64,000 bases of DNA from Psammoneis japonica. Its lineage: Eukaryota. The notes under the pieces were generated by a model, which worked only from the letters and a program-made list of their open reading frames with translations, made no database searches and was not told the origin of the DNA. Location: the NCBI GenBank assembly GCA_008632985.1, contig QPGO01000091.1, positions 124,001-188,000 of the forward strand, in the 5' to 3' direction. Position 1 is the first letter of the stretch. Each line of letters starts with the position of its first letter. The position numbers and the translations under genes are program-made. Below are positions 7,193 to 62,137 of this stretch, piece after piece.

Positions 7193-7193
<1 letters not shown>

Positions 7194-7229
<36 letters not shown>
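7194..7229. repeat. (AC)18 microsatellite
   Basis: Perfect AC run read directly from the sequence. Confidence 0.97.
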
Positions 7230-7230
<1 letters not shown>

Positions 7231-7444: not shown

Positions 7445-8850
7445 CATGCAAAAGATGTCATGCATGCATCACGTGCACTGGGATCACACAAAAAATTGTG
7501 TGTGTTGATGTTGTTTCTTGTTTGGGCACCAGCGCGCCCAAGTCTGAATTTTGCAATTTTCAGTGGGCTGTCCAAGCAAGCAACAACAAGCTGGAAACAA
7601 TGGCAAGAAGAAGAAGAAGAAAGAACAACAACAAGGTTCACCACAATGCCTCTTTGGGAACCAGCTGCTGGTGCAAAGTGCAAAAACAGCTTGAAGACTG
7701 CCAAGTGAGAGAGCTGGGAAATCCAACGCTTGGGACTTCTTGCAAAAAAAGTTTTGCATGTGCTCAATTTGATCATCAGCAGCAGCACCAGCAGCAGCAA
7801 GACAGTGAGTTGAGTTGTTGTTTTGTTCTTTTTAAGTTTGTTGTGCTGGCTGGGCACAACTCAAGCTTCTTTCTTGTTCTTGAACTCCATTGTTCAACTG
7901 TGTGCACATGGCTTCAACTGTCAAGGCTTGCTCTGTTTGTGAGTGTGCAGAAGATGTCATGCACACACCTCGTGCACTGGGGTCATGCAGAAATTGTTTG
8001 CACGTGTCGCTGTTGTCAGTTTCTTGTTTGGGCACCACCAGCACACCCACCCAAGCATGGCTCCTGACTCTTTTGCACTTTCCAGTGGACTGTCCAAGCA
8101 AGCATCAAGCCAGAAATGTGCAAAAATGGCTTGAAGACTGCCAAACAAGAGCTGGGAAATTTAAAACTTTTCTCACTTGCATCACAAATGTGTCAAACAA
8201 CACATTTTTAGATGTGGGCACAATTGCAAACATTTTGCACGATTTTGTTTTGGAACGTGCATTCTCGGAAAGCTCTGGAGAACCATTTTTGCAATTTAGA
8301 AAGTTCAATGTTGACTTTTAACACCGGCTTTTTTACATGCTGCCCATCCATTCACAGAGAGGAGCCAAATCTTGACCTTTGACAAACAAAATTTGTGATG
8401 AGTTGCTGTCACAAGGGAGATGCAAATGCCACACCCTTTGAGCAAATCTCCACACCGGTGGAAATTTGCTTGCAACAAGCAAATGCATGTGGCATGTTTT
8501 AAATGGATTGCATGTGATGTGGCATTTTCATGCTGTGTTCATCATGTCATTGTGCAAATTGCTGACACATCGCAATTCCTCAAGCAGTCCAGAGCAAATC
8601 TCCACCCATGGAGATTTCTTGCTCCGTGGTGGTTGAAGGGTTGGCAAGACTTTTTGCAACAAGCAAAGTTTTGCATGTGCTCAATTTGATCATTGTCATC
8701 TGCAGTGAGTGGAGATGTTGTTGTGCTTGTTTTTGAGTGCACTGTGCTGGTCAAACAGCAACTCAAGGTTTGTTCTCATTCTTGAACTCTGTTGTTCAAT
8801 TTTGCGTGTGGTTTCAACTGTCAAAGCTCACCCTGTTTGCACTTGCTCAT
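7445..8850. repeat. Non-coding internal repeats (about 7445-7580 vs 7945-8105; 7740-7935 vs 8650-8840), probably a decayed non-autonomous element
   Basis: Shared blocks agatgtcatgca..cgtgcactggg.tca, tttcttgtttgggcacca, ctgtccaagcaagca, gttttgcatgtgctcaatttgatcat and ttcaactgtcaa. Confidence 0.7.
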
Positions 8851-19753: not shown

Positions 19754-22285
19754 ATGACCACTTCAACCCCAACGAACGTCTCAGCACCATCCTTGGCTGC
19801 TTCCATGGAAGAAGAAAGAGAGGGAAATGTGGCTGCCGCTCTTGTGACTCCCACCTCCAAGCATTCCGATGCGAGTCATCATCAGTTTGAGGAGAACTGC
19901 AGCTTGGACTCAACGCCGGAGTCATCTCCTGCCGAATCCACTCTGTTCATGAATCTGTTTTCTTTTCTTGGAATTCGTTTTGAATCTGCCGATGCTGCGG
20001 AGCTCTCGATTCTGTTTTCAGAGCTCGGGGGTTGAGGACGCGTTCCAGGTCCAGGTGGGACCTCGCACTGCTGAACTGTGACATCGACAGTTTTTTGAAT
20101 CGCGTCGCATGTCGCGCACATGCATTTCTACGTGATTTTGGCAAAATTTTGCATCATTTTATAGCACAATTGTCAGGCAATCCACTCAACAACTTTTAAC
20201 ATTTTTTCCTTCTATGCCATTCTCGAGTGTCTTAAGAATGGCGCAGGGCAGGCGCATTGTCCAAAACTTTGAGTGCGAACAGAGACACATGTGCTGCAAA
20301 CTTGGCCGTTCATTTCATGTTGAAGACAAATGTGTCCATTGGCCAAAGTACGAACTGCAGAGCTCACACGCAGAATTCTACGGGGCAAATGTCACAAAAA
20401 GTCCCACCTGGGACTGGAACCCATCTGAGATGGTGGATGATCTTGGACTTTTGGAAGAGAAAGATTTCGAGCGTCTCTCATCGATTTCTCCCGTTTCCAT
20501 GCGAAAGCTCCTTCACGTGATTGACTTCATTCGAAACGGTGGGTCAATTGATGGACTCAGCTGCTGTCGGGATCTGGTCAAGTTTGTCAAGGCTGAAAAA
20601 GCACAATCGGCTCGTGTGTCGGACGACAAGAACGGCAAATCGACAAAGGAGCTTGACTCTGTCGTTGCTCTCAACATTGGAGGCAACAAATTTGCCGCTT
20701 CTCATGACACGCTTTCAAGATTTCCAGGGTCGTTTTTGGAGAGTCTAGCTTCTGGACGGCACCTCAACCTGGCCTGCAAAGACAAGGAAGGTGCCTGCTT
20801 TGTTTGTCATGATGGCACGCACTTTCAGCACATCCTCAACTTTCTCCGTGTCGGAACTGCAGCGACTCTCCTGAAAGAAGCCGTGGCCCGAGAGGCTCTT
20901 GTCATTGAAGCTGATTTCCATGGTCTTGATGAGCTTGTCCGAGCAATCACCTTCCCCAAGATTGATGTCGACGATTTCCTCGACAAGGAGACTGTCAAGA
21001 TTCGCAAGGAGGAGGATGTACTTTGTGAGGCCTTTGCAGCTGGATCAGCTGCCAGTTTTGATCGCCACAGGGGTCTCATTCCTCTTTTTTGTCCAGATGA
21101 TGGTCCTCCATCCCTGCCGTTGACCTGTCAACCAGAAAGCCATTCGCGTGAGAAACATTGTTTGCTCATGAAAAATCTGTGCAATGACGAAGCAACGAAC
21201 CTTGCACCAGCAACGGTTGGAGCCATTGGCAAGTTTGAAACCAACTTCAACCGTGAGCATCCAAACATGCTCCACAGGCTGTCGGAGGTCCTTCGTGAGG
21301 AGCCTGTCGTGATTGCTGGTGGAGCAGTGCTTCGTTGTCTCACCTCCAGCACTGGCATTCGCACGGCCAATTGGCGGGGCGAAAAAAGCGACATTGACAT
21401 GTTCCCACACTGCAGCAATGTGGAAGAGGCCAATCGAATTGCGCGACGCGTGCGCATTGACAGTGGACAACGAAAGGTGGGTGATTGTACGAAGTTGTGG
21501 AGTTGTCACCATCCATGACTGGGTGAGAGGCAGGAAAACGCAGACGCTTCAAATCATTCTTTGGCTGCATCAGTCTCCTGCCGAGGTCCTTCTGGGTTTC
21601 GATTGCGACTGTTGCTGCTGCTCACATGACGGAACATCCGCATGGGTGACCCCAAGATGGCTCCATGACATTCAACACGGCGTCAACATCTTGAACCCGC
21701 TCCATGCGTGGCCAAACAAGCCTTCCCATGAGCTGCGCTTGGCCAAGTGTGCTTGTCGTGGTTTTGCTGTTGCTGTTCCAGGACCGGATCAGACGCGCAT
21801 CGACTGCGACCGAATCCACCGCATGGATCTTTGTAAACTCAAGGGCTTGGCCAGGCTGTTGAAAGTGTCGTTTGAAATTGAGCGCTCACGCAGTCGTTCA
21901 TCCAATGGCATTCACAGCATTGATTCTCTAAAAGATGAGCAAGACAGTTGTGCGGAAATCACCGAGCATGCGATCAATGGAAGAACCGGAGGCCATGACG
22001 AGCTCGGCGATGCTGCAGTGATTGTCCCTTCTAATTGTCATGACGATGTCGGTGATGTCTCGGCTTTCTTGTGGTGGAATGATTTAATTTCCTTCCCTCT
22101 TGCTAGAGAATGCCGTGATCAAGTCTGGGAAGAAATTGAGAACACAGAAAACCCTCCGAACGGGGTGCCAGGTCGTCTCTCGGACTCTTGGAACCTCGAG
22201 AAGAAGTCTTGTGAGCATTTGAACGCCATCATGGACAAGTTCGACCTGGACAATTTGCACTGCATGCAGGGGTACAAGAATGATG
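19754..22285 (+). pseudogene. BTB/POZ (KCTD-type) plus putative nucleotidyltransferase-fold gene, copy 1; MITE-interrupted and frameshifted
   Basis: VALNIGGNKF...TLSRFPGSFL...DG.HF..ILNFLR...EADF.GL (BTB), then IAGGAV..SDIDMF, QIIL.L..SPAEVLLGFDCDCC. Highly similar to 25115-27383. Insertion at 20037-20425 and frameshift near 21450. Confidence 0.88.
20037..20425. mobile_element. MITE family 2, copy a (389 bp, about 24-bp TIR GAC...GTC-type, TGAG TSD)
   Basis: TIRs gacgcgttccaggtccaggtggga / tcccacctgggactggaacccatc; TGAG at 20033-20036 and 20426-20429; absent from the paralogous gene at about 25490-25510. Confidence 0.9.
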
Positions 22286-25114: not shown

Positions 25115-27383
25115 ATGAAAACTTGCGCCTGCAGCACCTCTGGCTCAACGCGCAGCATTCCCATTGCGACAGAACTTCAAAAGCAAGATGACAACGCCAA
25201 CGCGATCGTGCGTGGATTTTTCCATTTCCTCCGATGTTTCTTTCTCTGTGAAAGACGAAGATGAGAGCAACACTCCCGCGGTTGTCACCCCGATCTCAAA
25301 GGGTTCAGACGCATCAGGCTTCCCTTGAGATCGCAATGGCGACTGCTGCAACAACGAGAATTTTGGAGCACCGATGGCGAAAACTCCAAATGCAAAGGAA
25401 GCCACAGCTCACTTTGACAGTCTCCTCTCTTTTCTTGGAATTCCATCTGGCTCTGCTGACGCCACAGCGGCATCTGCTCTGCTCAAAGAGCTTGGTGCTG
25501 CTGCAATCGGAGACCTCGAGTTTCTAGAGGAAAAGGATTTCCACAGCTGCATCCATCGATTTCTCGATTTGCCCAGTGCAAACTCCTTCACACAGCATTG
25601 TTCCTTCAAAATGGGGGCTCATTGGACAATGTGACCTCCTTTGAGGATCTGCGTGATGCTGTGAAATCTGGAAAGGCATGCGAACGAGATTGTCCTCGCA
25701 CAAGTCTGAAGAGAACCCTCACCCGAAAAAGGAGCTTGGCCCTGTTGTCACCCCAAACGTTGGAGGCAACAAATTTGCCGCTTCTCGTGGCACGCTTTCA
25801 AGATTTCCAGGGTCGTCTTTGGAGAGTCTAGTTTCTGGACGGCACCTCAACCCGGCCTGCAAAGACAAGGAAGGTGCCTGCTTCATTTGTTGCGACGGTG
25901 CGCACTTTCAGCACATCCTCAACTTTCTCCGCATCGGAGCTGCGGCGACTCTTCCAAAAGGAGCCACGGCCAGAGAGGCCCTTGTCATTGAAGCTGATTT
26001 CTATGGTCTTGACGAGCTTGTCCGAGCAATCACCTTCCCCAAGATTGATGTCGACGATTTCCTCGATGAGGAGACTGTCAAGATTCGCAAGGAGGAGGAT
26101 GCACTTCGTGAGGCCTTTGCAGCTGGATCAGCTGCCAGTTTTGATCGCCACAGGGGACTCATTCCTCTCTTTTGTCCAGATGACGGGCCTCCTTTGCTTC
26201 TGTCGACTTTTCAACCTGAATCCCATTCAAGTGAAAACCATCACTTGCTTGTGAAAAACCTGCACAAAAACGAAGCAACGGACAGCACACCAGTCACGGT
26301 GGGAGAGCTCAGCAAGTTTGAGACCAACTTCAATCGAGAGCATCCAAACATGCTCCACAGGCTATCGGGAGTCCTTCGTGAGGAGCCTGTCGTGATTGCT
26401 GGTGGGGCGGTGCTTCGTTGTCTCACCTCCAGTGCTGGCATTCGCACGGCAAATTGCTGGGGCGAGAAAAGCGACATTGATGTGTTCCTACACTGCAGCA
26501 ACGTGGATGAAGCCAACAGGATCGCGAGGCGTATCTGGCGCGCATTGACAGTGGACGACGAAAGGTGGGTGATTGTACGAAGTCGTGGAGTCATCACCAT
26601 CCATGACTCCGTGGATAGCATGAAAACGCAGACGCTTCAAATCGTTCTTCGGTTGCATCAGTCTCCCGCCGAGATCCTTCTGGGTTTCGATTGCGACTGC
26701 TGCTGCTGCCTTTTTACGACGGGATATCCGTTTGGGTGACCCCAAGATGGCTTCATGCTGTTCAACATGGCGTCAACATCTTGAACCCGCTCCATGCGTG
26801 GCCAAACAAACCATCTCACGAACTACGCTTGGCAAAGTACGCTTGTCGTGGTTTCGCTGTTGCCATTCCAGGACTGGATCAGACGCGCATCGACTACGAC
26901 CGAATTCGCCGCACAGATCTTTGCAATCTCAAGGGTTTGGCGAGGCTGTTGAAAGTGTCGTTTGAAATTGAGCGCTCGCGCAATCATTCATCCGATGGCG
27001 TTCGCAACATTGATACTCTAAGAAGTGACCAAGATAGTTGTACCGAAATTTCAGAGCATGTGATCCATGGGAGAACTGGAGATTACGATGAATTTGACGA
27101 CATTGCAGTGATTATCCCTTCTGATTATCACGATGATGTCGGTGAAGTCCTAGCTGGCATGTGGTGGTGGCATTGGGATACTCCTTTCCCACTGGCCATT
27201 GACTGCCGAGATCAAGTCTGGGAAGAAATTGAAAACAACGAAAGCCCTCCCAACGGGGTACCAGGACGACTCTCGGACGCCTGGAACCTTGAGAAGAAGT
27301 CTCGTGAGTACTTGAACGCCACCATTGACAAGCTTGATCTCGACAACTTGTACTACATGCAGGCGTACAAGACCAAAGACTGA
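25115..27383 (+). pseudogene. BTB/POZ plus putative nucleotidyltransferase-fold gene, copy 2 (frameshifted; 5' part hypermutated, 3' part nearly intact)
   Basis: ORF pieces 25374-25634, 25678-26739 and 26691-27383 are colinear with copy 1. BTB motif reads GACFICCDGAHFQHILNFLR against KCTD consensus G.YFIDRDG..FRYILNFLR. Confidence 0.88.
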
Positions 27384-35546: not shown

Positions 35547-36178
35547 CAGCAAGCAAGAAAGTCGTTCCAATCAAAAATAATGCTCCATGCTTTTTGACCC
35601 TCGCGCGCAAAAATTAAAAAACAAACTAAACCGCACAAAGAATCCATGGCTTGGACTCCAACTCCCGACCATGGCGGTCATTCTAAGAGAGAAATCGATG
35701 CGAAGAGATGGCCGTGACGAATCGAAACAGCTCGTTGTTGAAAATCATCAATAAAAGAACAACACCCGGGATTCCAACGTGGTCCCCCACCGTAGTACTA
35801 ACCGGGCCAGAAGATGCTTAACTTCGCTGAGCAGACGGGAAGCGGTGCTGTCATCTTTGTATCAGCAAGCAAGAAAGTCGTTCCAATCAAAAATAATGCT
35901 CCATGCTTTTTGACCCTCGCGCGCAAAAATTAAAAAACAAACTAAACCGCACAAAGAATCCATGGCTTGGACTCCAACTCCCGACCATGGCGGTCATTCT
36001 AAGAGAGAAATCGATGCGAAGAGATGGCCGTGACGAATCGAAACAGCTCGTTGTTGAAAATCATCAATAAAAGAACAACACCCGGGATTCCAACGTGGTC
36101 CCCCACCGTAGTACTAACCGGGCCAGATGATGCTTAACTTCGCTGAGCAGACGGGAAGCGGTGCTGTCTTCTTTGTAT
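35547..36178. repeat. Near-perfect tandem duplication, 316-bp unit (35547-35862, 35863-36178), carrying 5S rRNA sequence
   Basis: Units start cagcaagcaagaaagtcg; I see only two differences, both inside the 5S sequence. Confidence 0.93.
35754..35862 (-). pseudogene. 5'-truncated 5S rRNA copy
   Basis: Matches the 36070-36188 copy but lacks its first about 10 nt (5' strand of helix I). Confidence 0.85.
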
Positions 36179-36188: not shown

Positions 36189-37960
36189 ATCCGGAATTAG
36201 CATTTTTAGGTATTTAAACGCTGCTCTTTAGTAGCTAGCTGCCTGCGTTGAAATCTCACGCGGCGCTGCTTGCTTTGAGGCCCAACGCCGTGCTTCCACG
36301 TGCAACAAAAAAACCTCTTTTTTATCAAAATGCATTTCCAACCGACCAATGCCATGCCAATGCGAAGTTCCCAATGACATAGGGTCACAAGTAGAGAGTT
36401 GCATCAGTCACAGAGCTGTCACCAAAATTCGTCCCTCGCACTTTCCTGTGTGACAAACAAGGTGCTCGGCAAAAAATTGGCTCCATCTTCCAACACAGCA
36501 CCCGATGCTGGGAACAGTGCATGCCCACTGCACTCTCACAAGACATCTGTTCAAAGAGTGTGAGACCAACAATGCTCACATCTTGTGCATTTTGTGGCTT
36601 TGGAAGGGGTCAAAGTCTGGCCAACTCTGCCAAAAATGTTGAACCGAGTGAGTGGGTGTCATGATGCGGGGCTCAAGACACGTGACTCGTCGCTGCACAA
36701 TGAAGAAGCAAGGTTCTTGACCCGTTCTGGACACCATGATCAGATGACAACATCATTGCAAACCAATTTTATGGCAATCTTCTGCTTTCCAGTTTGTCTT
36801 TGTCCCCTCGTGCTGGCAAGCGCATTTGACCTCTTTCGCGCTGCTGCAAGTGGGCGAAGCAATCCACAGGTGCTCATTTACAAGCCCACACTTTTCCATT
36901 TTCAGACATGACATTTGTGTGTCTTTGCGATCAATCTAGAGCATGTGCAAGCCAGGGAGGAGCTCTGTTCACTGTCGTTTGTCATTCCATGGAACAACAG
37001 CATCAGAACATTTTGCCAACATTGTTTGACGCCTTTTTCTTAAACCGTGCACCAACTTCATTCTTCATTTTCACTCTCATCTGCCCAACTCTCTCCCACT
37101 CAAGAACATGTGGCTGAATGCATGACAGTTGCTTTGTCAAAGTCTTCAAAAACATTCATCTGGTCAGCACCATTGATCAAAAAATGGGGTTGACAATGTT
37201 GTGACGGCACTGGATTTGTCGATGTGCTCACATGCCAGAAAAGACAACAAGAGCTGGATGCGGCAGCAACAAAGTTGAGTGAGACAACAAGTGGTGAGCC
37301 TTGGACACATTGACAACACCATTTTGATTTTCAATTTACTTGCCTTTTTACAAACTCAGACTTCAACACAGCGGGCGCCAAAAATCCGGCAAATGGCAAG
37401 TTGATGTGTCGTCTGCATGCAGCACGGAGTCACGAACGGGTGCAACGGTGTGTTTGCACAAAAACTGACTCTTTGCCATTCTCTGATTGTCCCTTTGCAA
37501 CCCCAAACAAAAGGCAGTGTCACAAGTCTGCTGCAGTGATGGGGCTCAAAACAACAATTGTTCAGACACTTTGTCTGCCACATCAATGTCGTCATTGGCT
37601 CTGGTGTTTTTTTGACAAGTTCTCCATGTTGTCACCACAGTGATGGTCTGTGCACTCATCCAGAGCATGCCTGCCATGCCAGTTTGGAGTTGTCCAAGGG
37701 GGTTGGGGCACATGGCAGTGTGATGCCATTGGCCCCAAGCAGGCAACAAAGAACACAGCACACAGGCCTCCTGCAAGCACAAAAGCATGGCAGGGCTTCT
37801 AAAAAAGACATCAACCATGGGCAAGAAAGGCAGATGCAAGAGGGCCAGAGGCGAGGTGAAATCCACTTGCAAAAGTGTTTCACTCAATGAAGTTGATGAT
37901 GAGACCTTGAGGGGCATGACGGCAATGGTCGAGACAAAAGAGTTTGCTGGCAGCTGTGAA

Positions 37961-38864
37961 GACACATTCCAGATGCAGGTGGGAATCCGCGTGACATTGT
38001 TGTGCCCACAAAATTCTGTGTGCAAGCTCCACAGTAAAATCATCAAGCAGTGAACACATCAATGATTGCACCAACCACCAACAGAAAATGAGGCAATTTT
38101 GCCAATGCACAAACTCATCCATGATGCATGTGCATCATTTTTTGCTCAGCCAGGTGCACTCCTTGGACATTGAAGAATGCACCTGGTGCGTTGTTGTTCC
38201 TAAAAATTTGTCAACTTTTTCCACACCCACGCGGTTTTGTGCGATTGCCGCATTCAAATAAAATTTTCAATTGCGAAGAATGCCAAAAACCAAATGACAA
38301 AACTCTCCATTCAAATGAACACAAATGGGTGTGAGCTGTTTTGACCATGACAGTTTTGTCCAATGGCATTGCAACAAGCCACAGGACAGACTTTGAACCT
38401 GCAGTTTGGACAACTGCAAAGAGATCTGTGCCTTGCACAAACCCGGAAAACACATCTGAATGGACTGGGGCAACAGGGTGCAAAAAAGTGACGGACAGAG
38501 ACATGTGCATGCTGGGGATGCATGCAGACACCATGGAAGAGTGACTTTTGGTGACAATTTCTGAAATCTTTGGCCCCATTCAAAGTCTTGCTTCATGCAT
38601 GGGTTTTGTCAGCAGGGCCATGCACCCTGCTTCATTGGTGTCTAAACTGACTGTCTCTGTGGGCTGAAATGTGTCAAGCCGAGTCACCCTGCGGGTGTGG
38701 AAAAAGTCAAACAAAACATCTGGGGTTTCACAAAACAGCAAGTCTGGAACATTTTTTTGGAAGATCACACACAGAAATGTGCATGTCAAACATGCAACAG
38801 ATGACAAAAAACAATTGTGTCACACGCCAGTGCTGCAAGCTCCCACCCAGGGCTGGAACATGTC
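37961..38864. mobile_element. MITE family 2, copy b (longer, more decayed)
   Basis: Ends gacacattccagatgcaggtggga / tcccacccagggctggaacatgtc are CpG-decayed versions of the family TIR; flanks TGAA/TGAG; first about 220 bp align to 40254-40470. Confidence 0.75.
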
Positions 38865-40253
38865 TGAGTGGCATTCATTCCGCCATTTGTCTTGGCAATG
38901 AGGATGCTCCCACCTCAGAGATCCACATGGGCAGTGAGGGCAATTGCACATCATGGGCTCTTCTCAAAGTTGGCAGTGTTGAGGCCATCTCATCTTCTTT
39001 GCAATGTGTGAAAGTTAAAACACAACATTTTGTTGGCAGAGCCAGGCTGTTTTGCTTTGTGTTGCTCCGCTCTCACCCATGTTCTGTTGTGGCTGGCAAG
39101 GAGTGCAGCCAAGCTCTTTTCCACTGTGCTGGACTCTGATTGTGATTGTGGCTTTGTGCATCATTTGTTCTGCATTCCGGGAGTGAGCATCCTTGCAAAA
39201 TGACTTGCAAATTTGTGATCCATGATGTGCTCAACATGGCTGAAATCTTGCAGACCAGTGGGATTGAAGCTGTTGTTTTGGCCATCCACATCATTTGGCC
39301 TGACAAAAATGCCTTCACAGCATGGAGTTGTCATGCAGCAAAAAAGTGTCACACCACAGTGTGTTGCATTGAGTTTCAAAATTGCACAGCATCACAAAAA
39401 ATCATGTCCTTTGGTGGCATCCCTGCCATGTGCCATGTGGTGGCACACATGAAGGGTTGCCCTGACTCCACAGCAGCGCAGGGCAGTGGATGCTTCTTGG
39501 CGCCAATGTTGCTGTCACATGATGCTTCAGTCAGTGGCAACCTGCCCACAGTGGGGATGGGGTGAATTGCATGGCCCTCCTCAAGTGCAATGAGGAAGCA
39601 GCAGCCTTGAACCCTCCTGTGAATGGGCTCTGCTTGGCACTCACAAGGCTCCATGCAATGTGGCAAAATGGAAGTCCCTCAACAACGTTCAGCAGGCTTG
39701 AGTGTTGTCATGGTGTGTTGGAGGAAAGGTGTGCCTGTTCAGATGTCAAAAAAAGAGAAGTTGCTTGGGTTTGTTTCTCATGAGCAAGCAAATTGAGGTT
39801 TGGTGAGCTTGCTGTCACACACCATGCAGCAGCTTGTCTGCAGCCACCAGCACTGGTTGAGTCTCTGAGCACAGAGCACTCGATGTCATGCTTGGAGCCA
39901 GTGTGGGCATCTGTGTTCTTTTGTTTTGTCACACACACATGCCAGCCTAGATCATTTGCTTGGATTTGTTTGGGGCAGTTCTTTAGAAGTGCTCTGTGCT
40001 GCAGGTGGAGTCCGGCTTCAACAAAAGCCAAAAGATGGCCCCACATGTCATGTGCACCCACTCTGCTTCTCTTTCTTTTGCCAGGACCTCACCCAATCGC
40101 ACGGTGGTGTCATTGCTTTTACAAACAGTGTTTTTTGAAATTTTGAAGTGTGTTGGGCGTTTGGAGACAACCCACAAGTCCCTTGAGTTTGAGTTTGCAG
40201 TTCGCAGTGAAGCGTGCAAAAAAAAAAAAGCTTCCAGCTTCCACCAGCCATCT

Positions 40254-43139: not shown

Positions 43140-45600
43140 CTGCTCGAGTAAACCCCAATCTTGTACTCTTTTGGGCAAGTTGGATTTGCCAGCGGCATGA
43201 TCTGTGCCCAAGCAAACAGCGCATGGTCGTGCTCGCTTTTTTGCACTGACATCGACGTCTTCTCCTGTTGTCACCTTCGTTTTGGGTTTTCTTCCCATTG
43301 CTTTCTTCGCCTGCTTGGAATGACTCTTTGCCATTTTGTGTGCCGCTGACTGCTTTGACTCTCTTTTGTTCTGTTGCTTGTGATCACACTGTCTAAAACT
43401 TTTCCTGAACTCTACATTCAGCCAAACCGAGATCTTCGAAGAGTTTTATAACGTGGTCAGTTGGGTTGGTTTTAGAAAGCCCAACAAGACCAGCAATGCC
43501 AATTTCCCAGCTTCTTGAGTGGTTCTGATTCAGCCACTTTCCCTGTGAGCACTTTGTGACCATGGACCACAGACACAACTTGGCAGGTGGTCCTCAATGC
43601 CTTGGACAGCTTGGGGGTGTGCTTTTCTTGTTGAATCTCAGCATCACTTCATTCGTCACATCATGGAGGAGTGTGCTTGCTTGTTGAGCTCTAGAGGACA
43701 ATCAAAGTGACTGCACTGCTTGGCCACCATCTCCTGTGGCAGCAACTCAATTGCATCTTTGCTCACTTTGTTGTTTCAGGCATGTCTGCATTCCAGTTTC
43801 AACCAAGCAAAGCTGCAGCAGTTTGAGTTGATGCAACCCAAGTGATCTCCAATGTGGCATGGGAAAACATTGAAATTTTTCTTTTTCACATCCTCAAAAT
43901 GCTGGTTGGTTGGTTTTTTTTGTTTTCACCCCATGACACCTTTTTCAATTCTTTCAAGCACTGCTTGATGCCATGCATGGCCATTGCAATGCAAGAATTT
44001 TCCAGATTGCCAACACCATGTCCAAACTTTTGTCCTGTTTCTTTGCTGTGCACATTGATTTTGCCAAGCTCTTCAATGCATGAGCACAGTGTGGAATTTT
44101 TTCAGATTCACCAATGGCTTCTGCCCCCATTGTTTCAATTTGTTTTTGCCACAATTGATTGTCTCCCTTTGAGCCACCATTGCTGGTGGTGAGGCACAAG
44201 TGCATGGCAAGAAAATCTCCCAAGCACACTCCTCCATTTTTTTGCCCCCAAGGAGCAAACAATTTCCAAATTCCTCTGGCATGTGCCAGTTGGCAATTGG
44301 CAGTGCATTCATGGAAATGCTCATGTGCTTGCGCCATTGTGCTTTGTTCCAACAAACAATGACAGATCTCTTTCTCCATTCCTTGGTGTTTCATGCATTG
44401 CATGGCAACATTTCATGCATGCCACGCAAGAAGCACCAATTGCCATGGGCAAATCCAAGATGCTGGAAATGGAAATCAAGCCATCAGTGCTTTGGATCCT
44501 CCCTGTCAAGTGATTCCTGCATGATCATGTGGTCCTGCATTCATCCATTTGTGCCAACACCCTGGCAATGCACCACTTGTCACCCTTGGAACCCTTTTGT
44601 TTGATTGTGTCACCATCCTCATCAAAGTCGAGACTTGACTGCATTGCCTTGATCTCTTGGCTGCTTCTGAATTTTCATTTTTGTGCTTTTTTTGCCATCA
44701 TTTTGTCCAGATTGGTGGAGACATGTTGAGCCTGGTGGATGACTGTGTTCACAAGAAATGCCTTTTTTCTGACACAGCAGTCATCTTTGCATGCTCAGTC
44801 ATGTGAAACTGATCTTTCTCCCCACATGCAGCAACAAGTGTCAGTGAAGCCGAGTCCATCCTCCTTGTTGAATTTGAGCAGCTTGACATTTGGGAACCGA
44901 GGTGCCTTTTGCTCTTGCAGCACTTGTGATGATTGAGTGCCCAAAACAGCAGAAGCCCCACAATGTGTGGGTTTTGATGCACCATGTGACATGTGACATG
45001 TGCTTGTGAAAATCAATTGGCAATGCATTGGACTTGACTTGAGGATCTTTGTTTTCCTTGTTGCTTTCCTCACTGCTGAGGACTTAAAATTCTTCAAACA
45101 TCAGGTTTGCAGCATTGTGAGAAAATGTGTTGAGCAACGGACATTCTGTGTTGGCACTGGGTGTGGTTGCCCAGTTCTGTAAAGTCAAATTTAAGCTGAA
45201 GCAGCTGACTCCACACCAAGGATCAAAAGCACCTGACCAATCACTGCACATGCTCTCAACGACCATCCTGAAGTCTGCAATTGCAAGCCAGGGGTTAACA
45301 CCACATGGAGCAAGAGCCTTTTGGAGCTGTTGCAACAAGCAAAACTTTTTTGTGCAATCCAGAGAAAATTTGGACATTTCCTGCAGCTTTTTCAGGTGTG
45401 CGACACCTGAAATGATTCATTTGTGCTTGGGCAGGGAGACATGACACACACTGGCAGTGATGAAATGAACAAGTCACATGGAAAATCTGAAAGTGCGTGC
45501 TGACATCAGCATCACTGTGTTTTGTGTTGACTCTTCTGGGCATTTTCAGCAATGAATGTGATTTGTCAAGAGGGTCATTTCAGCAAAAAAAGATGAATGA
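43140..45600 (-). mobile_element. Decayed coding element, possibly a DNA-transposon transposase
   Basis: Only weak hints: Lys-rich tail ending CAVC...H, and a GDH..C...C pattern, inside a hypermutated tract. Family not identified. Confidence 0.3.
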
Positions 45601-45899
45601 GAATGAGAGAGCTTGAGACAGGCAAAAAAAGGGGGGTTCCATCCTCAAGCATTTGCCATTGACCACCATTGATGGTGCCATTTTTGCCAGACAGTGCAAA
45701 ACTGAGCCATTCAAGCTGTTTTTCTTTTGTCGCATGACTCAAGGCAACATTGAGCCACTCAAGCTGTCATGCCAGCACTGGCATTTTGGAAATTTTAATC
45801 AAATTGTCAACACATGAAATTCACACAAGCCCCATTTAAAAATGTGCTCAAACACTTCAGCTCAACAAATGTCTAAAAACAACAGCCACTCAAATTTCC

Positions 45900-48800
45900 C
45901 ATTTTCTCCATAATTCTGAAGAAGTGTGGCATCAATGGGGAGGTGTGCCATGACAGCAACTGTGACAGTGCATCTCTGTTGTGTGAGTTGGGCACACCTC
46001 CATCACTGACATCATGCCAGAAATGTGATGGGAAACACTTGAAGCCAGAAAACAATCTGATTGATTGCTGATGCAGAGGTGAGACAGAAATGTGACAAGT
46101 GGGGGACCCTGCTTGTTGGTTGGCTTGATGCCTTGTTCTGTTCAACACATGGCAGCAAGCCACCTGGCATCTGACAAACGAGGAGCTGGAAAAAACTGGA
46201 GCATGCATTGACCTTGTCACAGAACTGTTGTCTGAATTGGACACGCTGGTCATGATAAAAATGCACTTGGCATTCAAACAGCCCACACCAAAGTTCTGCA
46301 AAAGCTGCCAACCTGACCCCCACCAGTGCATCCCAAGGTGCAACCAAAACCTGACAGGGAGCAGAAAGGGGCAGCTGAGGGAGGCACAAAAGCAGCCACA
46401 GCATTGGGAGAGCAGAAGGAGTGCAGAATGCAGTGTGAAGGGCATTTGTTGGAAGGGATGGGGGAGGATGGAGCAGGAAGAGAGGAGGTAAAGTGGAGAG
46501 CATGCATTGAGAAATGGCAAACCAGGTTGCAGCTGAGCATTGAATGGCCCATTGAGATGGAAAGGCAGAATGATTGGTGCTGCCAAAGTGATTGTTGGAG
46601 AGGTGATGCCAGCCAAAATTAGCCACAAGAAAGGAAGGAGCCCAGACAGAGAAAAGCCAGGGCATGGTGCAGGAAGGCAGAATGGGAGAAATTGGAATTG
46701 TGGAGGTCAGAAGGGGAGGACCAGGAGGCTTGGGCTGAGAGCAGGTGGAGGAGAGTGAGGTGCCAAAGAGGGAGCAATGGCAAAAAAGAAGCCAAGGCTG
46801 GGTGCCAAGGTGATCAAAAAGGCAAAGGGTGGGAGATGGATGTCGTCAATGTCAAGCAATGCAACAATTGACAACAAGGGATCTGTCAGTGGAGGTGGCA
46901 GAAGGGCCAAGGAACTTCAGTCTTGCACTTGTGTGGTGTGCCTGAGTCAAGAGAGAGGTGGAGAGAGGAGGCAGAACAGGAGGAGGGTGAGAAGGAGCTT
47001 GGGAAATGGCGGTGTTGACAGGAATGTGGTGATGTTGGGATGAGGGAGCCAAAAGGGAAGTGGGAGGTGGCATGGAAATGCCAACATCAGCAGGACAGAG
47101 GACAGAGCAAGCAGGAATGAGATTTGCAGGTTCAAGGTGAACGTCATTGGAGGAATGATGCAGCTTGGCAAGAGCTTGGATTTGTTTCCATGGTGGCAGG
47201 AGAAGGTGTGATCACCACAAGCATCAAGCATGTCATGGCCACAGGGGCAGGGTGCACCAGCAAGGGAGCAAAGAAGGATGGGAAGACACAGCTTGCATTG
47301 GGCAGCAATGACACAGCCATCAGAAGCAAGGCAAGAAGAGTTGGAGAGCATCAAGAAAGGGAGTGAAGAGGGAGACTCTGGTCAGCAGGGAAAGGAGAGA
47401 AAGCAAAGCAATTCAAGCATCAGAGGGAACATGAGCAAGAGTGGCAGAGACCACTTGCTGTTGATGACCATGACACAGGCAGCATGCAAGGCCAAGGAGA
47501 GCAACAGTTTTGACAAGGCTGGCAAGAGATGAGGCAGAGCGAGGAGGAAGAGCCAGGATTGAGAATGGAGGCAAAATTGCCGAAGATTGCATGGAGCTGA
47601 AGGGTTGAGCGCGGGTGGTTCCAGGGTGACAGAATGAGCCAGAAGCATCAAGGGAAGGAGATGGTGTCACCAGATGGCAACTGAGCCCTGCAGGCAGCAA
47701 AGTGGAAGGACTGAAGGAGGGCAACAAGGAAGGAAGGGGGATGGCAGCAGAGGACGGGTTGCAAAGGCCAAACCTGCCAAATGAAGCAGGAAGGAAGGTG
47801 GCAGCAAGGGAGTGGGGAGGGAGGGATGAGTCAGAGTGAAGGTGGTGAAGGAAGTGGTGAGCAGTCATGAGAAGGGAGGCTTGAAAGGAGGAGGTCCAAA
47901 GGCACGGGTCAGGAGGGTCATTGGTGGGGTCAAAGTCATGAAAGTTGGTGCCAAGGAGGTGGGCAGAGGAGGGGGTGAAGCAGTGCTTGAATGGTTGGGC
48001 TTGAGTTTGTTTGTCATGAAGGCAGGTGAGGAGCATGCCAACTTTGTCAGAAAGTTTGGGGGCAGTCTCAGAAAGAAAGGAGTTGGCAAAAGCCTGAGAG
48101 CCAAGAGGCTGACCAAGAAAGTGTGCGCCAGAAGTGAGCTTGGGATTGCAGGAAAGGTTGTTCAGAGGGTCAAGGTGGGAGAGGGCAGCCCAAAGGGGGT
48201 TAGCTTGAGAGGAAGGAAGAGCAGGGATGGAGCCAGCACCAGCAGTGGAAGCAAGGATCTTTGCAATTTGCAGGTTGAGCTCGATGCCGCAGGGAGTGCC
48301 AAGAGCGGAAAATGCTCAAGGAACCAAGGAAGAGCAGTGTGAGGAAGAAAACATGAGCATTGTCAATGTCAGAACCAATGGAGGTAGGAGAGTGGCCAGG
48401 GAGGCACTGGAGCAGTTGCTTGTTGAGGGGGTGGAGTGCAAGGGAGAGAACAAGACTGGTGAAGACATGGCCAGGAGGACAGCCTTGGGCAAAGTCTTCT
48501 TCTTGAACAAAGGAGCACCACAAGAAGTCAGGGCAACAAGAGCAGAAGGCATTGGGGCATTGGTGTGTGAGGTCAAAGAAAGGAAGGAGAGAGGGCAGAA
48601 GGCCTCAATGGAAGCAAGAAGATCCCTGCAAGCATCACAAGAAACTTTGTCAAACATGTTGACGAGGTCAAGGAGCAGGCAGGAGGGCCTTGGTGGGGCT
48701 GGCGGAGGAAAGGTGGCATTCAATGTGCAGAGTGAACAAGGTGGCTAAGACCACCTTTGACACTGATGCCAAATTGGCCATCAGGAAGATGGTGTTTGGT

Positions 48801-50100
48801 GAAGGCAGATGATGCAAAGAGGGTCATGATGAAAGATCCGGCAATGTGACAAAGGGCTGTGCCATCACTAATTGGGTGGAGCTTGTGGAGATCTGTTGGA
48901 TCCTTGTGAAGAGCAACAAAGCAGTTGGAGGCAAGCAAAGGATGAATGAATGGAGGAACAGAGCCATTGAGAAGAAGAAGAAGAGCGAGCTTCTGAAAGG
49001 AAAGGAGGTGGCTGGGGATGTTGCAACTCACCAGTGAAAGTTTTGGTGGAATGGAGGGCACAGAATTTGAGCAGCTCAGCAGAATTGGCAAAGACACCAG
49101 CAGCTGCAATGGGTTTGCACTCAGAGAGTGCAGAGAGGAGAGCTTCAGCAGAGAGTGCAATGGGCTCATCATGAGGCAAAGAGGTGGATTGGGTGGAAAG
49201 AGCAGCAGAAGTGCTGCATGGAAGGATGAAGACAAGAAGGGTGAAGCTTGAGCTTGGGAGGGAGGCACTCAAGAGTGGCAGTGGTGATGGGGAACACACA
49301 GAGGTGAGCTGGGAGCAGGCCGAATGAAAGTTGTCTTTGTTGGCACAGACCTGAGTGGAGTGGCAGTGAGTGGAGGCAGAGAAGTTGGGAGAAGAAGAGG
49401 CAGAGGAGGGGGGTGGGCAAAAGAGAGAAAGTCTCATCATGCAGTTGGCAAACACAGCCCCAACAGAAGAGAGCAAGGTGGAGAGCTGTTGCAGGGCCAA
49501 ATTTAGAGCACCAAGGAATGGGAGCAAGGAGAACAAGAGCTCAGGAGAGAGGAGCAGGAGTTTCCAAAAGGGTGTGGAGTCCCATTGCCATTGAGGAACA
49601 AGGTGAGCAGGGTCAAAGATGTGCTGAGAAGAAGCAAGGACCTGTTGAACCACATGTGATGGAGAGTGGAACAAAGTTCCTTGTGGAAAAAGGAAGAGAG
49701 CTTGCCCCAGGAGGAGGTGCAAATGGGAGGAGGCATGAGCTCAAGGGAGTGGAGCCATCATTGAAGGGAAGAATGCCAAGAACCAGTGCTGCAAAGGGCA
49801 GAGGAGATCATGCCAGTGGCAAAGAATGAAAAAGGCACTTGAGAAAGAGAATGATGGGGATGCTCCTGACAGAGATGACTGCACACAACAGCAGTGGGAA
49901 GAGTGGATGAATCTGAAGAACAAGGAGACCAGGAGCAAAAGGGGCAAGCCAGCGGGGAACAGGTGCCAAGGGGTTCCATGAGGCAACGAGGAGGTCACGG
50001 GGAGAGTCAAAGTCAGGAGTGGTGGTGAGGATGGCAGCGTCAGAGAGTGGCATCCAGTCAGAGATGTGAGCTGGGCAATGGGCAGCAACAGCCAACTGGA
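45900..50100 (-). mobile_element. Decayed non-LTR retrotransposon, CRE-like (RT, CCHC finger, restriction-like endonuclease)
   Basis: In order on the minus strand: ALHKD..KLHPISDG.AL (RPI), QFGISVKGG, LLLDLVNMFDKVS, FAQGCPPG, DIDN (YxDD), GRFGL, CPCG..LDA.GDH.FSC, PADV. Ends uncertain. Confidence 0.82.
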
Positions 50101-50315
50101 ATGACAAGAAACCAATTTTCAAGCAAGAATTTGGGCCTGGATTGAAATTTTTGCAGCCTCCTCCTCTGACTCATGTGAATCTCCTTGTTGGAATCCAACG
50201 ACACACTGATGGTGCTGGCTTTGGTGGTGGGCTGTTGTTTTTGGTTCAAGATTCCTTGATGGGCTGACCATTTGCCGTTGTTGGTGTTGATCCACTTCTT
50301 TCAATGGAGGTTGCA

Positions 50316-51716
50316 TGCCACCCATGTTTGCAATGTGCAATGATGCGCTGCTGCAGAGCCAAGATGCACTCCAGTGCAATGTTGCAAAGAGATGCAACCA
50401 GCAGAAATCTCTTGATGGGGAACCAAATGGATGGACAAGAATCTGCTTGAAGAGTCATTTGCTGCCTCAGATCAAAGCCACAAACAAATGCAAGGCAAGA
50501 AGTGTTGGAAGGATGGAGACAGAAGAAAAACTTCCACTGGAGGGATTGTCAGTTGGCTCAGAATGCTGAGGCATGGCTGACGCTAGAGGGAGGTTTGCAG
50601 TGGCCATTGTCAGGACAACAGACCACTGGGGAGGAATTTGTGTTGGGTGCAATGATGTTGCTGGTGTTGGAGCCAAAGTCACTGGTTTCATTGTTGGCTC
50701 TGAGCCAATGCCCATCTCTTCTAAATCCACCAGCACCTCACATTTTTCCCACCCAATCATCCATGTCACATGTCATCCAACAATCCTTTGTGCAGTTGAA
50801 TGATGATGCAAGAGCCAATCAACTTCCATCACAATTGAGACTTGCAGTCAGTCCTTGACATTTTGGGTCTCCCATTTGTCCTCATTTGCTGGACAAGGAG
50901 TCACCAAGCATGCTCCAGAGTCACAGTCACATGACAGCAAACCGTGTCACCAAAATGCTTGGCAATCCCAAGAAAACAGCCAGGAAGCCTTTTTGACTTT
51001 GGAAAAGACTCATTCAAGACGCAGTGCCAAACCGGTGCCCCAAAAGACAAATTGGAACATGCTGGTTTCAGGAGCATTGCCAAAGTGCAACTCCTCTGAA
51101 GTTTGCCACCCGTGTTTGCGACGTGCAATGATGCACTGCTGCAGAGCTGAGATGCACTCCAGTGCAACATTGCAAAGAGATGCAACCAGCAGAAAGCTCT
51201 TGATGGGAACCAAACAGACAGACAAGAATCTGCTTGAAGAATCATTTGCTGCCTCAGATCAAAGCCACAAACAAATGCAAGACAAGAGCTGTTAGAAGGA
51301 CAGAGACAGAAGAAAAACTTCCACTCAAGGAATTGTCAGTTGGCTCAGAATGCTGAGGCATGGCTGACGCTAGAGGGAGGTTCGCAGTGGCCATTGTCAG
51401 GACAACAGACCACTGGGGAGGAATTTGTGTTGGGTGCAATGATGTTGCTGGTGTTGGAGCCAAAGTCACTGGTTTCATTGATGGCTCTGAGCCAATGCCT
51501 GTCTCTTCTAAATCCACCAGCACCTCACATTTTTCCTGCCCAATCATCCATGTTGCATGTCGTCCAACAATCCTTTGTGCAGTTGAATGACAATGCAAGA
51601 GCCAATTGACTTCCATCACAATTGAGACTTGCAGTCAGTCCTTGACATTTTGAGTCTCCCATTCCTCATTTGCTGGACAAGGAGTCACCAAGCATGCTCC
51701 AGAGTCACAGCCACAT
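50316..51716. repeat. Direct repeat pair of about 615 bp (50316-50932 and 51104-51716)
   Basis: Colinear alignment; differences dominated by CA/TG/CG swaps. Confidence 0.93.
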
Positions 51717-51779
51717 TCTTTTTCTGCATCTTCTTCTTGACATTCTAGTCGCCACTTCTGGTTGAATGCATTGTTGCAT

Positions 51780-53000
51780 CTGGACAGCACACTGGACAAT
51801 GGTCCTCAGGAGCTGCATTCAAGTGCATGAGGAGCACAACAATGCCATGTTCCCCCACACAATTGGAGCCATCTGCATTGGGCCCGCCACAGCAATGAAC
51901 AAGGTGTAAATTGCCTCATGTCCCTCTCCTCAGGAAAGCACATTGTTCACAACAAACGACTGATTTGCCTGTTCCAGCAGATGCAATCCACTGGGTCAAT
52001 GAGCTTGGCCACATGCAGGACATGCACGCCACCCTCATGTTCTTCATGTGGAGACACCAACATGCTGAACATGACCACCCCCCAGCTCAGCAGATGGCAA
52101 CCATGACTTGGGCTGTGACCCCAGCAACAATGCTTCTGATGGCAAGCCTCTCTAAATGCAAACTCAGACTCTTCATGAGATGACTCAACCAGTGATGATT
52201 TTTGATCTGGACAACCTGTCATGGCTGCATCCTGTCCTGCAGGAGTGAGGCCTTTTGTTGACTGCATTGACCGCCGCACCCACATCATCACCACAGATGT
52301 GTGAACAACATGAGCAACAATTGGAGTGCATTGCCAGCTGCTGCAAGACCTCAGCAGATAAAGCACCAGGCACCACAGGAGTGGGAAATGCAGGAGTGGG
52401 GAGCCATGCAGAAAAAACAACAATGTGGACAGTCCAGGAGACTCAGAGTCAGACGTGGTGGCACCTGATCTCATCCCAGGGAAACATGATTTCATGCCAC
52501 CACCAGATGATGATTCAAGCAATGATGAGAGTGTGGGACCAGATGAGAGTTGATGTCAACTCAAGCAATGATGAGAGTGTGGGACCAGATGACTGCCAAA
52601 GGAATGATGACAAACCCAGTGACAGTGCTGACATGCCAGCCCCAAAAAGTGCAAAATGCAGCTCTGGTGACTCCAACTCTGACAATGCCAATGACAACAA
52701 GGATGTCATGGGTGACATGGGCTGCACATGTTGCAATTTGACCCTGGCTCAAAATCTTTAGGTGCAAAGAAGGAACATGAGACTGTGGCTGCAGGTGTGA
52801 CTCTGAGAGCTCAACTGGCAGTTGCGGCACCCCAGCATGCAACATTTCGAACACCCGGTGGGCACCCTGTTTCCAGCCAAACAGAAGTTGGCAAAGAAAT
52901 GGCTGAAAGCTTGCCAGGGTCAAGGCCAGTGCAATGGACAAGGAAATGAAACAACTGGATTTCCAGGATGTCACCCAGCTGGTGATTGCCAAAGACACAG
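51780..53000 (+). mobile_element. Decayed Ty1/Copia (diatom CoDi-like) pol fragment, post-integrase region to RT start
   Basis: IQVHEEHNNAM.P.TIGAIC.GP..NEQG..MSLSSG, LPVP.D.I..V..LG, acidic linker, then KK.LK...A..KEMKQL. Confidence 0.72.
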
Positions 53001-59284: not shown

Positions 59285-59865
59285 GAATAAAAGGGGTGTC
59301 GACTGAGCGAAGTGAGCTCTGTGTCCCGTAGATGGAAATAGATTAGGGAAAAGCAACTGTGTGTTACCGCACAGCGCAGATTTCAGCCTTGCCTTATTTA
59401 GAAGCTCTCAAAAGTGCTGTATCCCTCTTGCATTTTAAGTCATAGTTTTTCGTAAATTGTTGTATGAATGTAGATGCTAGTAGAATGTCCAACATTGAAA
59501 CAAACTGGACAAAACGATGTATTTGTTGTTCGTTTTTTCGCCTCATTCTTTACTTATTTTAGGGTAATAGCCTAATGAAGTTGCCAGTAAAACACTAAAA
59601 GTATAACAGAACTCTCCGGCAGCTGTTGCAGCTCCATACGACTACCATACTTGATTCCGAGATACTCCTGTTCTCCGATCCGAAAGCAAACGGGGTACCG
59701 CGCCGCACGACTCAGTGAACCCACCAACCAAGACTGAATTCACCAATCAAATTGCTCCGCGTGCCTTTTCAGTCACGTTTGATCTATCACGCAAGACTGA
59801 ACAGATCGCGGTATCTAGCCACCTCATTCTTCATTCTTCGCAAGCTGTCGGAACCTTTACCCACT

Positions 59866-62137
59866 ATGCTTTCGCCTCGTGCAATCAACCTCTTGCTGTT
59901 GATTATCACGTCCACTAGTGAAGTCCACTCCCTGACGTCCAACAACGCCGCCACCGCCATGGCGTCTTCCTCCTCTGACAGCAACAAAAGCGCTACTACG
60001 ACCGATGATACTTTGCGCCAAATCTTTCCCGACACCAAGTCGGTCAAGATTTTTCCCGATGATTTTTTGGACGATCCACACAACGTCGTCGATGCCGATT
60101 TGATTGATCGATATCGCGGACACTTTTCCGATCGCCGAGTGGCCATTTTGATTCGACCGGGTGTCTACGAAAATGTAAATTTGCCCGTTGGTTACTGGAC
60201 GCAAGTATTGGGTAAGTGGCGCGAGCAAATGTGATCGTGATCGCCACATGTCGCGGTAAAAATTGATCATGCCGATGAATAGTCGAAGTTGTTTTTGTGT
60301 TTCTGGTCGCTTGATCTCATCTATTGCTTTTACTTTATCGCTCATAGGACTAGGAGCGACACCAGAGCAGGTTTCCTTTGTGGGTCAATTGGGTGTGTAT
60401 GCCTTGCCGTCCAATACCGATAATCCTGGTGTGGGCAGTCTCGATACCTTTTGGCGAGCGGCGGAAAATTTTGTGTCAGACACGAACTTTGTAAAGTCAC
60501 CCAATGGTACATGGGCGGTACCAGTCATTGACGACTCTCTTGATGTAGACGACAAGGTGCAGGCTAGTTTGGCTCCGGCCGATGGTGTCTTTCCAAAACT
60601 CTACGACATGCCCAATGCTAGTGAAGTCGGTTTGGACGACGACAAAACCTTTGAACCATCCAAAGGCATGCTCTGGGCTGTGTCTCAGGCAGCTCCTCTG
60701 CGGCGTGTGCATGTGAAAAACAATTTGCATCTGTCCTTGGGTGATAACTACGCCAGTGGTGGGTTCCTCGGCAACGTCCAAGTTGACAACAACTTGTTGT
60801 TTGGCACCCAACAACAATTTTGTGTTCGTGGTAGTAGCATTGGCAGTCAAGCCATTGGCGGGGCCTGGTCAATAGTTTTTCATGGTTGCAAGTCCCAGGA
60901 GGGCAAAGCAAGCAAAGACCCAGTCCCGTGGGTAGGCACCAAGCCACAAGTTGTATGGGAAGCACAGACGCCACAACGTGTCGAGAAACCATTTATTTTT
61001 TTGGATGACGATGGCCGCTTGTTTTTGGGCGTACCCCAACTCCAAACTAACGCCCAGGGCGTTGATCACCAACCCGTGTTGCAAAAGTACGAAATTACAC
61101 CGTCGGGCATGGCCGCTCGTGTCGTATCCCCCGAGGACGAATTTGCTGATATTCAAGCCGCGGCTGACAAGGGCATACACCTCATCTTGAGTCCAGGGAC
61201 TTATGAATGGAAAGAGACATTGCATATTCGAAACTCCAACCAAGTCGTGTTGGGGTTGGGTATGGCAACCATTCAAGCACCCGGAACTGGAGCACCATGC
61301 ATCAAGGTGCATCCTCAAGCAGTGGGAGTACGACTGTCCGGTCTTTCTTTGGAAGCTAGTGTCATTTCCAAATTCATTTACGATGGTTCAACCTTGTTAC
61401 AATGGGGCGATCCCGAGCAAATTGGTGCAGGGGACTCCGCCCAACCTGGTGTGATTCACGATCTTTATTGCTTTGTTGGTGGACGAAGTCTTGACCGGAC
61501 CGTCAAGGTACAGACAATGGTCAAGATTTACTCCAGTCATGTCATCGGTGACAATTTGTGGTTGTGGCGTGCAGATCACGTCAAGTTGATGCCCAAGGAA
61601 GCACCAAATCGACCGGAACTGAGCGAATATCACATTACGACTTATGGCGAATGCATGTGTGATACCGGTTTGGAAGTGTATGGTGATCATGTTGTCTTTT
61701 ACGGTCTCGCCGTTGAACATACATACAAGGACATGGTATCGTGGTATGGAAAGCAGGGACGCGTTTACTTTTACCAGAGTGAGATGCCCTACGATGTTTC
61801 TGGTGACGTTTATCAGAATGTGGCGGGGTATCGGGTTCATGTCGGAGCCGATTATCATGTTGCCAAGGGTGTTGGCGTCTACAGCTACTTTCGCGACTAT
61901 GGCGATGTAGAAGTTGACTCTGCTGTTGTCAATCACAGCGTGATGGGAAGTGTATTTGAAAAGGTGTTTACGGTCTGGCTGAATGGTTATTCCGGAATTC
62001 GTTCCGTTATCAATGGACTGGGTGGGCCGACGGGGCAACCTGGAATTCCAATTGAGTATTCAGAGTACAAAGGCGAACATTTGTTGTCGCCACACTTTTG
62101 GAAAGGTATTCCCAAGAAACTTTTTTCCAAGCCCTAA
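59866..62137 (+). CDS. Bacterial-type GH55 exo-beta-1,3-glucanase (laminarinase-like) with signal peptide; exons 59866-60211, 60348-62137
   Basis: PGVY..VGYWTQVLGLG.TP, TFWRAAEN, WAVSQAAPLRRVH, YASGGF, VVLGLGMAT, WLWRADH, GLAVEH, FYQSEMPYD match actinobacterial GH55 motifs. Confidence 0.85.
60212..60347 (-). mobile_element. Ty3/Gypsy pol (RT thumb/connection) fragment forming the whole GH55 intron
   Basis: Minus strand reads without stops PMSDKVKAIDEIKRPETQKQLRLFIGMINFYRDMWRSRSHLLAPLT, a characteristic Gypsy pol segment; similarity ends at the splice sites. Confidence 0.9.

Follow-up and report, generated by a model that had tools for sequence, protein, structure and literature searches.

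An intron in a GH55-like gene of Psammoneis japonica that appears to derive from an antisense Ty3/gypsy pol fragment

How new spliceosomal introns originate is still debated, and according to the passages of PMC4202315 on this subject no source sequence has been found for most gained introns. A 136 nt intron in a GH55-like gene of the diatom Psammoneis japonica raises the question in a form where donor family, borders, joined product and intron-less homologues can all be read from sequence. It lies on the plus strand at 60212..60347 of a 64,000 nt stretch of contig QPGO01000091.1 (assembly GCA_008632985.1, positions 124,001 to 188,000 of the forward strand), which is the whole stretch analysed and is called the window below. 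We are highly confident that the stretch 60212-60347 is an intron and that it came from a fragment of a retroelement. The fuller statement, in which it is a working U2-type intron, recently gained from an antisense piece of pol through capture during break repair, we hold with moderate confidence.

The host gene consists of two plus strand exons. Exon 1 (59866..60211) begins with the ATG, read directly in its open reading frame (ORF), and stops one base into the Gly116 codon, and an assembled contig from the sequencing run X2, described below, begins slightly upstream at 59840. Exon 2 (60348..62137, including the stop at 62135-62137) is supported by matches to chains of the Protein Data Bank (PDB) and by an orthologue alignment. 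Joining 59866-60211 and 60348-62137 by script gave a 711 amino acid (aa) product, which over the junction reads PVGYWTQVL^GLGATPEQV (^ marks the exon border) and aligns without gaps to 32 of 33 orthologues. Apart from the insert the frame of 711 codons is unbroken, with the family's conserved columns retained. Four PDB chains (4pew, 4tz1, 4tyv and 4pex), which we take to be a Streptomyces GH55 exo-beta-1,3-glucanase, match exon 2 with E 2e-50 to 1.3e-49, over residues 108-567. The name exo-beta-1,3-glucanase is also carried in the source by one protein match of the gene, and the best GH55 matches belong by their source names to Cylindrotheca and Nitzschia at 53-57% identity, with one transcript at 69%; going by these names, the window resembles nuclear DNA from a raphid pennate diatom. 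By its similarity to GH55 enzymes the host gene is thus GH55 exo-beta-1,3-glucanase-like. The 33rd orthologue, P0015, begins at the junction (M-GLG); the predicted start of this 589 aa GH55 homologue, M-GLGETPEDV on a 3409 nt assembled contig, falls on the junction residue, which may reflect a truncated gene call or an interruption just upstream. In P0018, a relative of P0015, a Met stands at the same place inside the motif.

The intron itself could be read directly from the window. Exon 1 ends with ...CAA GTA TTG G at 60211 and exon 2 starts with GA CTA GGA at 60348, with a Gly codon split in phase 1 and an intron of 42.6% GC between GT and AG. Its removal restores YWTQVLGLG, the X2 contig skips the same 136 nt, and retention would lead to a stop after 7 codons. 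A preliminary description, made from the letters of the window, had placed an intron of the form G^GTAAGT...CATAG^GA in the QVLG/LG motif, and this reading stands. The 5' splice site GTAAGT (60212..60217, plus strand), where the joint of the X2 contig starts, corresponds on the opposite strand to CTT AC(C), codons for Leu-Thr; the full Pro-Leu-Thr codons CCA CTT ACC are the reverse complement of GGTAAGTGG at 60211-60219. At the other end the Pro-Met codons CCT ATG are the reverse complement of CATAGG at 60343-60348, so both splice sites correspond to the pol codons from which they had been proposed to come. The remaining 3' signals (60316..60347, plus strand) were read by eye: two candidate branch points chosen by the consensus yUnAy, CTCAT (60316-60320) and TTTAC (60329-60333); a pyrimidine-rich tract reaching 60342, which lies opposite purine-rich codons for Asp, Lys and Glu; and, at 60346-60347, the acceptor AG. 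With a consensus-like donor and the acceptor CATAG ending at 60347, the intron has the signals of a U2-type intron.

No long terminal repeat (LTR), terminal inverted repeat (TIR) or target site duplication (TSD) was found at the intron, in agreement with the preliminary description. Terminal direct and inverted repeats are at most 2 nt long, and the only flanking repeat is a 2 nt GG ambiguity at both junctions, which is about the level of chance. A 10 nt inverted repeat, 9/10 complementary with a 2 nt loop, does span the 3' junction (60338-60347 and 60350-60359); its first arm belongs to the end derived from pol, its second to conserved exon 2. Per junction, 0.4% of random pairings give a match of this quality. 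The repeat may be due to chance or may reflect the way in which the end was joined, and was not used as evidence.

Read on the minus strand, 60211..60348 holds 46 open codons of a Ty3/gypsy-type pol, from the part that links RVT_1 to RT_RNaseH_2. To place them we used a 61 aa probe in which the 46 codons were flanked by antisense codons of the exons, 12 from exon 2 and 3 from exon 1. A word-index search at lengths of 108-2000 aa gave three proteins among 15 candidates, the best being P0002 (1089 aa; E 5.6e-10 against 5.8 billion proteins, 61% identity over 49 aa), while the same kind of search for relatives of near the probe's own length found none. An exhaustive search of 1.84 billion representatives returned 951 proteins at E<=1e-3, 27 of them at E<=1e-10 and the best at 5.4e-20, and confirms the open Gypsy pol segment that had been recognised on the reverse strand. 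P0002 carries RVT_1, RT_RNaseH_2, RT_RNaseH and Integrase_H2C2; among six long relatives scanned all had RVT_1 and RT_RNaseH_2, and five had a downstream Integrase_H2C2. This order of reverse transcriptase (RT), RNase H and integrase is that of the Ty3/gypsy type. The match in P0002 covers residues 456-504, between the end of RVT_1 (449) and the start of RT_RNaseH_2 (512). Searches of Pfam with the 46 aa and 175 aa antisense translations gave no family, as the fragment falls between Pfam domains.

The borders of the similarity were determined by placing 153 relatives ungapped on the probe and computing the identity at each position. At the 12 upstream codons, on the exon 2 side, identity is 0.00-0.11, despite strong conservation of the family there (Y-L-G-Y..T..G-I-K). 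It jumps to 0.87 at the Pro13 codon (60348-60346), the sequence stays family-like through Thr58 (0.59, 60213-60211), and identity drops to 0.03-0.10 at the three positions beyond, where the family has a conserved Leu. Such sharp borders mean that the pol-derived stretch coincides with the intron and reaches no more than about 1 nt into either exon, which is the overlap given in the preliminary description. An extension of the pol similarity into exon 2, where Gly-Val-Ala-Pro-Ser resembles the family's Gly-Ile-x-Pro, was considered and rejected, because ungapped identity is 0.00-0.11 there and the other genomic copies diverge at 60348/60349. Searching the window with full-length P0002 by tblastn gave a match at 60348-60202 only, and blastn and tblastn with the intron and its peptide found no second copy in the window, only chance matches at E>=0.02. 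No whole LTR element is present at the site, which is without LTRs, TSD and any gag or pol past the 46 codons.

Other copies of the element were found in the sample from which this DNA is known. Three runs contain it, all from one sample and one study and none on record as RNA; contigs, not raw reads, of two of them were placed on 59700-60900, namely X1 (141 million letters) and X2 (30 million letters, of the kind 'DNA?'). Both long X1 contigs break within the intron, at 60313 and 60293, and an exact unitig of 39 nt (60284-60322) has a depth of 130, against about 58-60 in the flanks. Four short X1 contigs match the intron with differences: 6 in 66 nt at 60215-60280, 3 in 59 at 60255-60313, 4 in 45 at 60287-60331 and 4 in 56 at 60293-60348. 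Their loose ends part from the window sequence at 60215 and 60348. A manual translation of these ends in the frame of pol gives ..GFWLTREGTK before Pro-Met, and Leu followed by SELMSSKKK after Ala-Pro. Their counterparts in P0002 and P0003 are LGYHISQDGIRP / LGYWITKNGNKP and PMTKLMSTK, and they agree with P0002-P0004, not with the GH55 exons. The sample therefore holds several longer pol copies of the family, 91-95% identical to parts of the intron. The copy at the donor side differs at 60213-60214, with Ser (TCA) for Thr and without a GT donor, and is a relative, not the source. The insert thus has no transposon ends and comes from a family that can be identified elsewhere, as is expected for an intron gained through break repair.

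None of the homologues compared has an intron at this position. We scanned metagenomes with a 25-sequence GH55 alignment, which gave 80 loci, 75 of which were matched by a 75 aa probe centred on the junction. The junction is continuous in one frame in 74 of these 75, and 25 of the 74 lie on contigs extending at least 1.5 kb past the gene. In L002, one of the closest (55% identity), the gene is a single ORF of 719 codons between two minus strand ORFs, an arrangement that marks such contigs as genomic and not as transcripts. It should be noted that many of the loci of about 2.2-2.5 kb may be transcripts, which say nothing of intron absence. In five loci (L013, L030, L043, L073 and L076) matched pieces in other parts of the gene are separated by 43-250 nt of additional DNA, which could be introns. 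The one exception at the junction is L077 (37% identity). Its start (1-81) opens with 78 nt that bear no resemblance to the coding sequence of L071, the relative nearest to it; they include an ACG repeat, and their end, ctatag^, falls in phase 1 of the second Gly codon in G-L-G. By these features L077 has a predicted intron of unrelated sequence, 6 nt downstream of the 60211^60348 site, and the motif would have been interrupted twice at different positions. The identity of 91-95% to other copies, together with 46 intact and family-like codons, points to a gain that is recent on the scale of the lineage, and the intron is probably young. The gain and, indirectly, the recency that had been claimed in the preliminary description are thus supported, while the capture of retroelement complementary DNA (cDNA) that it gave as the route stays an inference.

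By which route did the fragment arrive? Transposition by an integrase is excluded by the lack of LTRs, element termini and TSD. We lean towards capture at a double-strand break. A fragment of retroelement DNA or cDNA would have been captured at the break by end joining with 1-2 nt of G/GG microhomology, so that an internal pol piece of 134-138 nt came to lie antisense in a previously uninterrupted Gly codon of the GH55-like gene. The antisense pol codons would then have supplied all splice signals: Pro-Leu-Thr (CCA CTT ACC) the donor GTAAGT, the purine-rich Asp/Lys/Glu codons the pyrimidine tract and branch-point-like sites, and Pro-Met (CCT ATG) the acceptor CATAG^G. Precise removal of the insert would have allowed the allele to survive in the most conserved N-terminal motif. 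That the ends of the fragment are also the splice sites follows under break-repair capture from selection, since only a perfectly removable insert survives in an invariant motif, and a retroelement donor is what this route predicts.

There is precedent for this route. Sections of PMC3443670 and PMC4202315 describe intron gain through break repair, including an intron of mitochondrial origin, and give break repair as the favoured model for the neo-introns of Daphnia, a few of which have mitochondrial (mtDNA) or ribosomal (rDNA) donors. Like these, the present insert is short foreign DNA without transposon ends in a once continuous exon, removed as a GT..AG intron; it differs in that the donor is an internal antisense piece of pol and the repeat is 2 nt, versus the longer direct repeats reported for many Daphnia cases. 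At yeast breaks retrotransposon cDNA and pieces of mtDNA of 22-492 bp are inserted by end joining with microhomology, as reported in a portion of PMC11372161. The fragments captured from yeast Ty1, and in mouse zygotes after Cas9 cuts, are likewise end-joined with little or no homology (in the relevant parts of PMC11372161 and PMC4516963). Those are experimental repair products without a role as introns, whereas the fragment studied here sits within a natural gene, in a conserved coding motif where splicing allows it to persist. The intron also resembles introners, transposable element sequences that act as introns as soon as they have inserted. About 12% of the introner families that have been classified derive from LTR retrotransposons, and both complete elements and solo LTRs serve as introns, in the section of PMC12130899 that classifies them. 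Introners as presented there are multi-copy families inserted by their own transposition machinery, and carry termini, LTRs or TIRs, and TSDs; of these ends and duplications the 136 nt internal coding fragment has none. Nor is there a second intron copy in the window, and the other copies in X1 continue as pol ORFs and not as introns. Among the open-access papers searched, we found none describing an intron that consists entirely of an antisense piece from inside pol, nor a donor of this sort for the break-repair route.

The anatomy of the locus fits reverse splicing equally well. An antisense transcript of the retroelement would have been spliced at cryptic GT..AG sites, and the 136 nt intron would have been reverse-spliced into the GH55 mRNA at G^G, reverse-transcribed by the RT that the element supplies in plenty, and recombined into the gene. 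This would explain why the pol-derived stretch ends within about 1 nt of both splice sites, why there is no filler, deletion or duplication beyond GG, why the exon sequence is perfectly restored, and why the set of signals is complete, as expected of a sequence already spliced once. The mechanism predicts a unit GT...AG without extra bases, as is seen, and would require as donor a cryptic intron in an antisense retroelement transcript, of which none was observed. Reverse splicing is considered very rare in the discussion of it in PMC3443670. The exact borders in an invariant motif are also accounted for by selection alone, the only other copy seen at the donor side has no GT, and there is again the single copy in the window to consider. 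Further, a retroelement has no special status as a donor in reverse splicing, yet is an expected source of captured extrachromosomal DNA. A later yeast reporter study is said to have observed intron transposition by reverse splicing. Overall we regard this origin as unlikely, though worth keeping in view, and continue to favour break-repair capture.

Is the intron in fact removed? The evidence is a joined contig of 2342 nt in X2, presumed to be mRNA and corresponding to 59840..~62317 on the plus strand; it was placed from its start to 60900, and its end was computed from the record coordinates on the assumption of colinearity. Its pieces 59840-60210 and 60347-60900, at a depth of 223, meet in a joint that skips 136 nt between GT and AG with a 2 nt ambiguity. 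The contig is confined to one transcription unit: it begins about 26 nt ahead of the ATG and ends about 180 nt past the stop codon. The depth of the run is 0 both in the upstream spacer (59700-59822) and across most of the intron (60233-60314). On these grounds X2 was read as derived from RNA, a conclusion which we hold with strong confidence and which is nevertheless the weakest link in the chain. The joined contig might instead be DNA from an intron-less allele or strain variant, in which case the insert would be polymorphic and splicing unproven. The label 'DNA?', in a set of runs with none recorded as RNA, would allow this, and a young insertion could be heterozygous in a diatom, since diatoms are diploid. 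Against it, both stretches that are empty in X2 are covered by X1, which covers all 30 bins of the region and contains no intron-less joint; a DNA library of the sample should contain the intron-bearing form as well; the contig ends close to the gene on either side; and X2 is the far smaller run. We consider it improbable that X2 is DNA.

A disrupting insertion, by which the gene would be a young pseudogene with the insert not removed, seems very improbable: the early stop on retention and the lack of raw RNA reads for junction counts speak for it, whereas the joined form exists, the 711-codon frame is intact with its conserved columns kept, and GTAAGT, pyrimidine tract and AG are all there. 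An old intron whose interior was later replaced or filled by a retroelement insertion is just as improbable, for while L077 indicates that the motif does take introns, its intron is at another codon and unrelated in sequence, and at the present site the pol homology extends into both splice sites with no non-element intron sequence left, there are no LTRs or TSD, and 74 of 75 loci are uninterrupted. The preliminary description had named three outcomes that would speak against it; what was found is a joined, mRNA-like form in X2, the kind of run being off record, where it had named a lack of spliced transcripts, a continuous junction in nearly all loci with L077 interrupted elsewhere, where it had named an intron at the same position in distant orthologues, and a strong pol match, where it had named the absence of a Gypsy hit.

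Several points nevertheless weigh against a recent gain through break repair. Reverse splicing would place the fragment ends exactly at the splice sites, with no need of selection. As the GG repeat is at about chance level, the direct repeats typical of Daphnia break-repair introns are not demonstrated here. The true source copy is not among the X1 pieces seen. With nearest orthologues 55-69% identical, the time of the gain cannot be bracketed by phylogeny, and to judge from L077 the Gly-Leu-Gly motif may be a preferred intron site whatever the mechanism. Splicing rests on the shape of one contig from a run listed as 'DNA?' with its library type off record, and X1 is possibly the sample behind the window assembly, so that it does not prove the insert independently.

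The intron had also been said to keep its CG and TA dinucleotides, unlike other remnants of transposable elements in the window. The first part holds, with 10 CG (observed/expected, o/e, 1.66) and 7 TA (o/e 0.67), compared with o/e values of 0.0-0.15 for both in kilobase blocks of the window; that these blocks are remnants of transposable elements could not be confirmed, since their ORFs of at least 150 aa match no Pfam family and tblastn with the pol protein P0002 gave no match there. The blocks lie at 4001-10000, 37001-40000 and about 43500-53000, partly also at 1-2000, and have TG and CA at o/e 1.6-1.9; no tandem repeats were found in the part checked for them, 45000-51000. Within the last block, at 46001-50000, the plus strand is 66-71% purine with a GC skew of about 0.39 and an AT skew of about 0.33, and the lack of TAA and TAG leaves long frames open on either strand.

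Three local pairs of duplicates have TG versus CA among their commonest dinucleotide differences. The pair 20641-22279 and 25724-27372 is 84% identical, with 181:68 transitions to transversions and 12 cases of TG versus CA; it consists of genes with a BTB_2 domain, with TA at o/e 0.03-0.14 and normal CG. The pair 50316-50932 and 51104-51716 is 93% identical (34:4, 5+5 cases), and the pair 231-796 and 3674-4233 is 76% identical (81:40, 10+8 cases). An ancestral CG or TA that changed separately in the two copies would leave such differences, which hint at a process turning both CG and TA into TG/CA. A tandem duplication of a 316 nt unit, 99.4% identical, is found at 35547-36178.

The case links retroelement activity to the birth of an intron without transposition, and illustrates that the antisense of ordinary purine-rich coding sequence can furnish a full set of splice signals. 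The intron works as neo-introns from break repair do, though its donor is of a new kind, and the locus is one where break-repair capture and reverse splicing predict different, testable things. We give little weight to, yet find instructive, the idea that it is a natural record of intron transposition, in which a cryptic intron of an antisense retroelement transcript was reverse-spliced into the GH55 mRNA and copied back by the element's own RT. Were this true, it would be the first case in the wild with both donor and recipient identified. Diatoms have been reported to contain many lineage-specific introns of unknown origin, and antisense retroelement transcripts would then be a standing reservoir of ready-made introns in this group.

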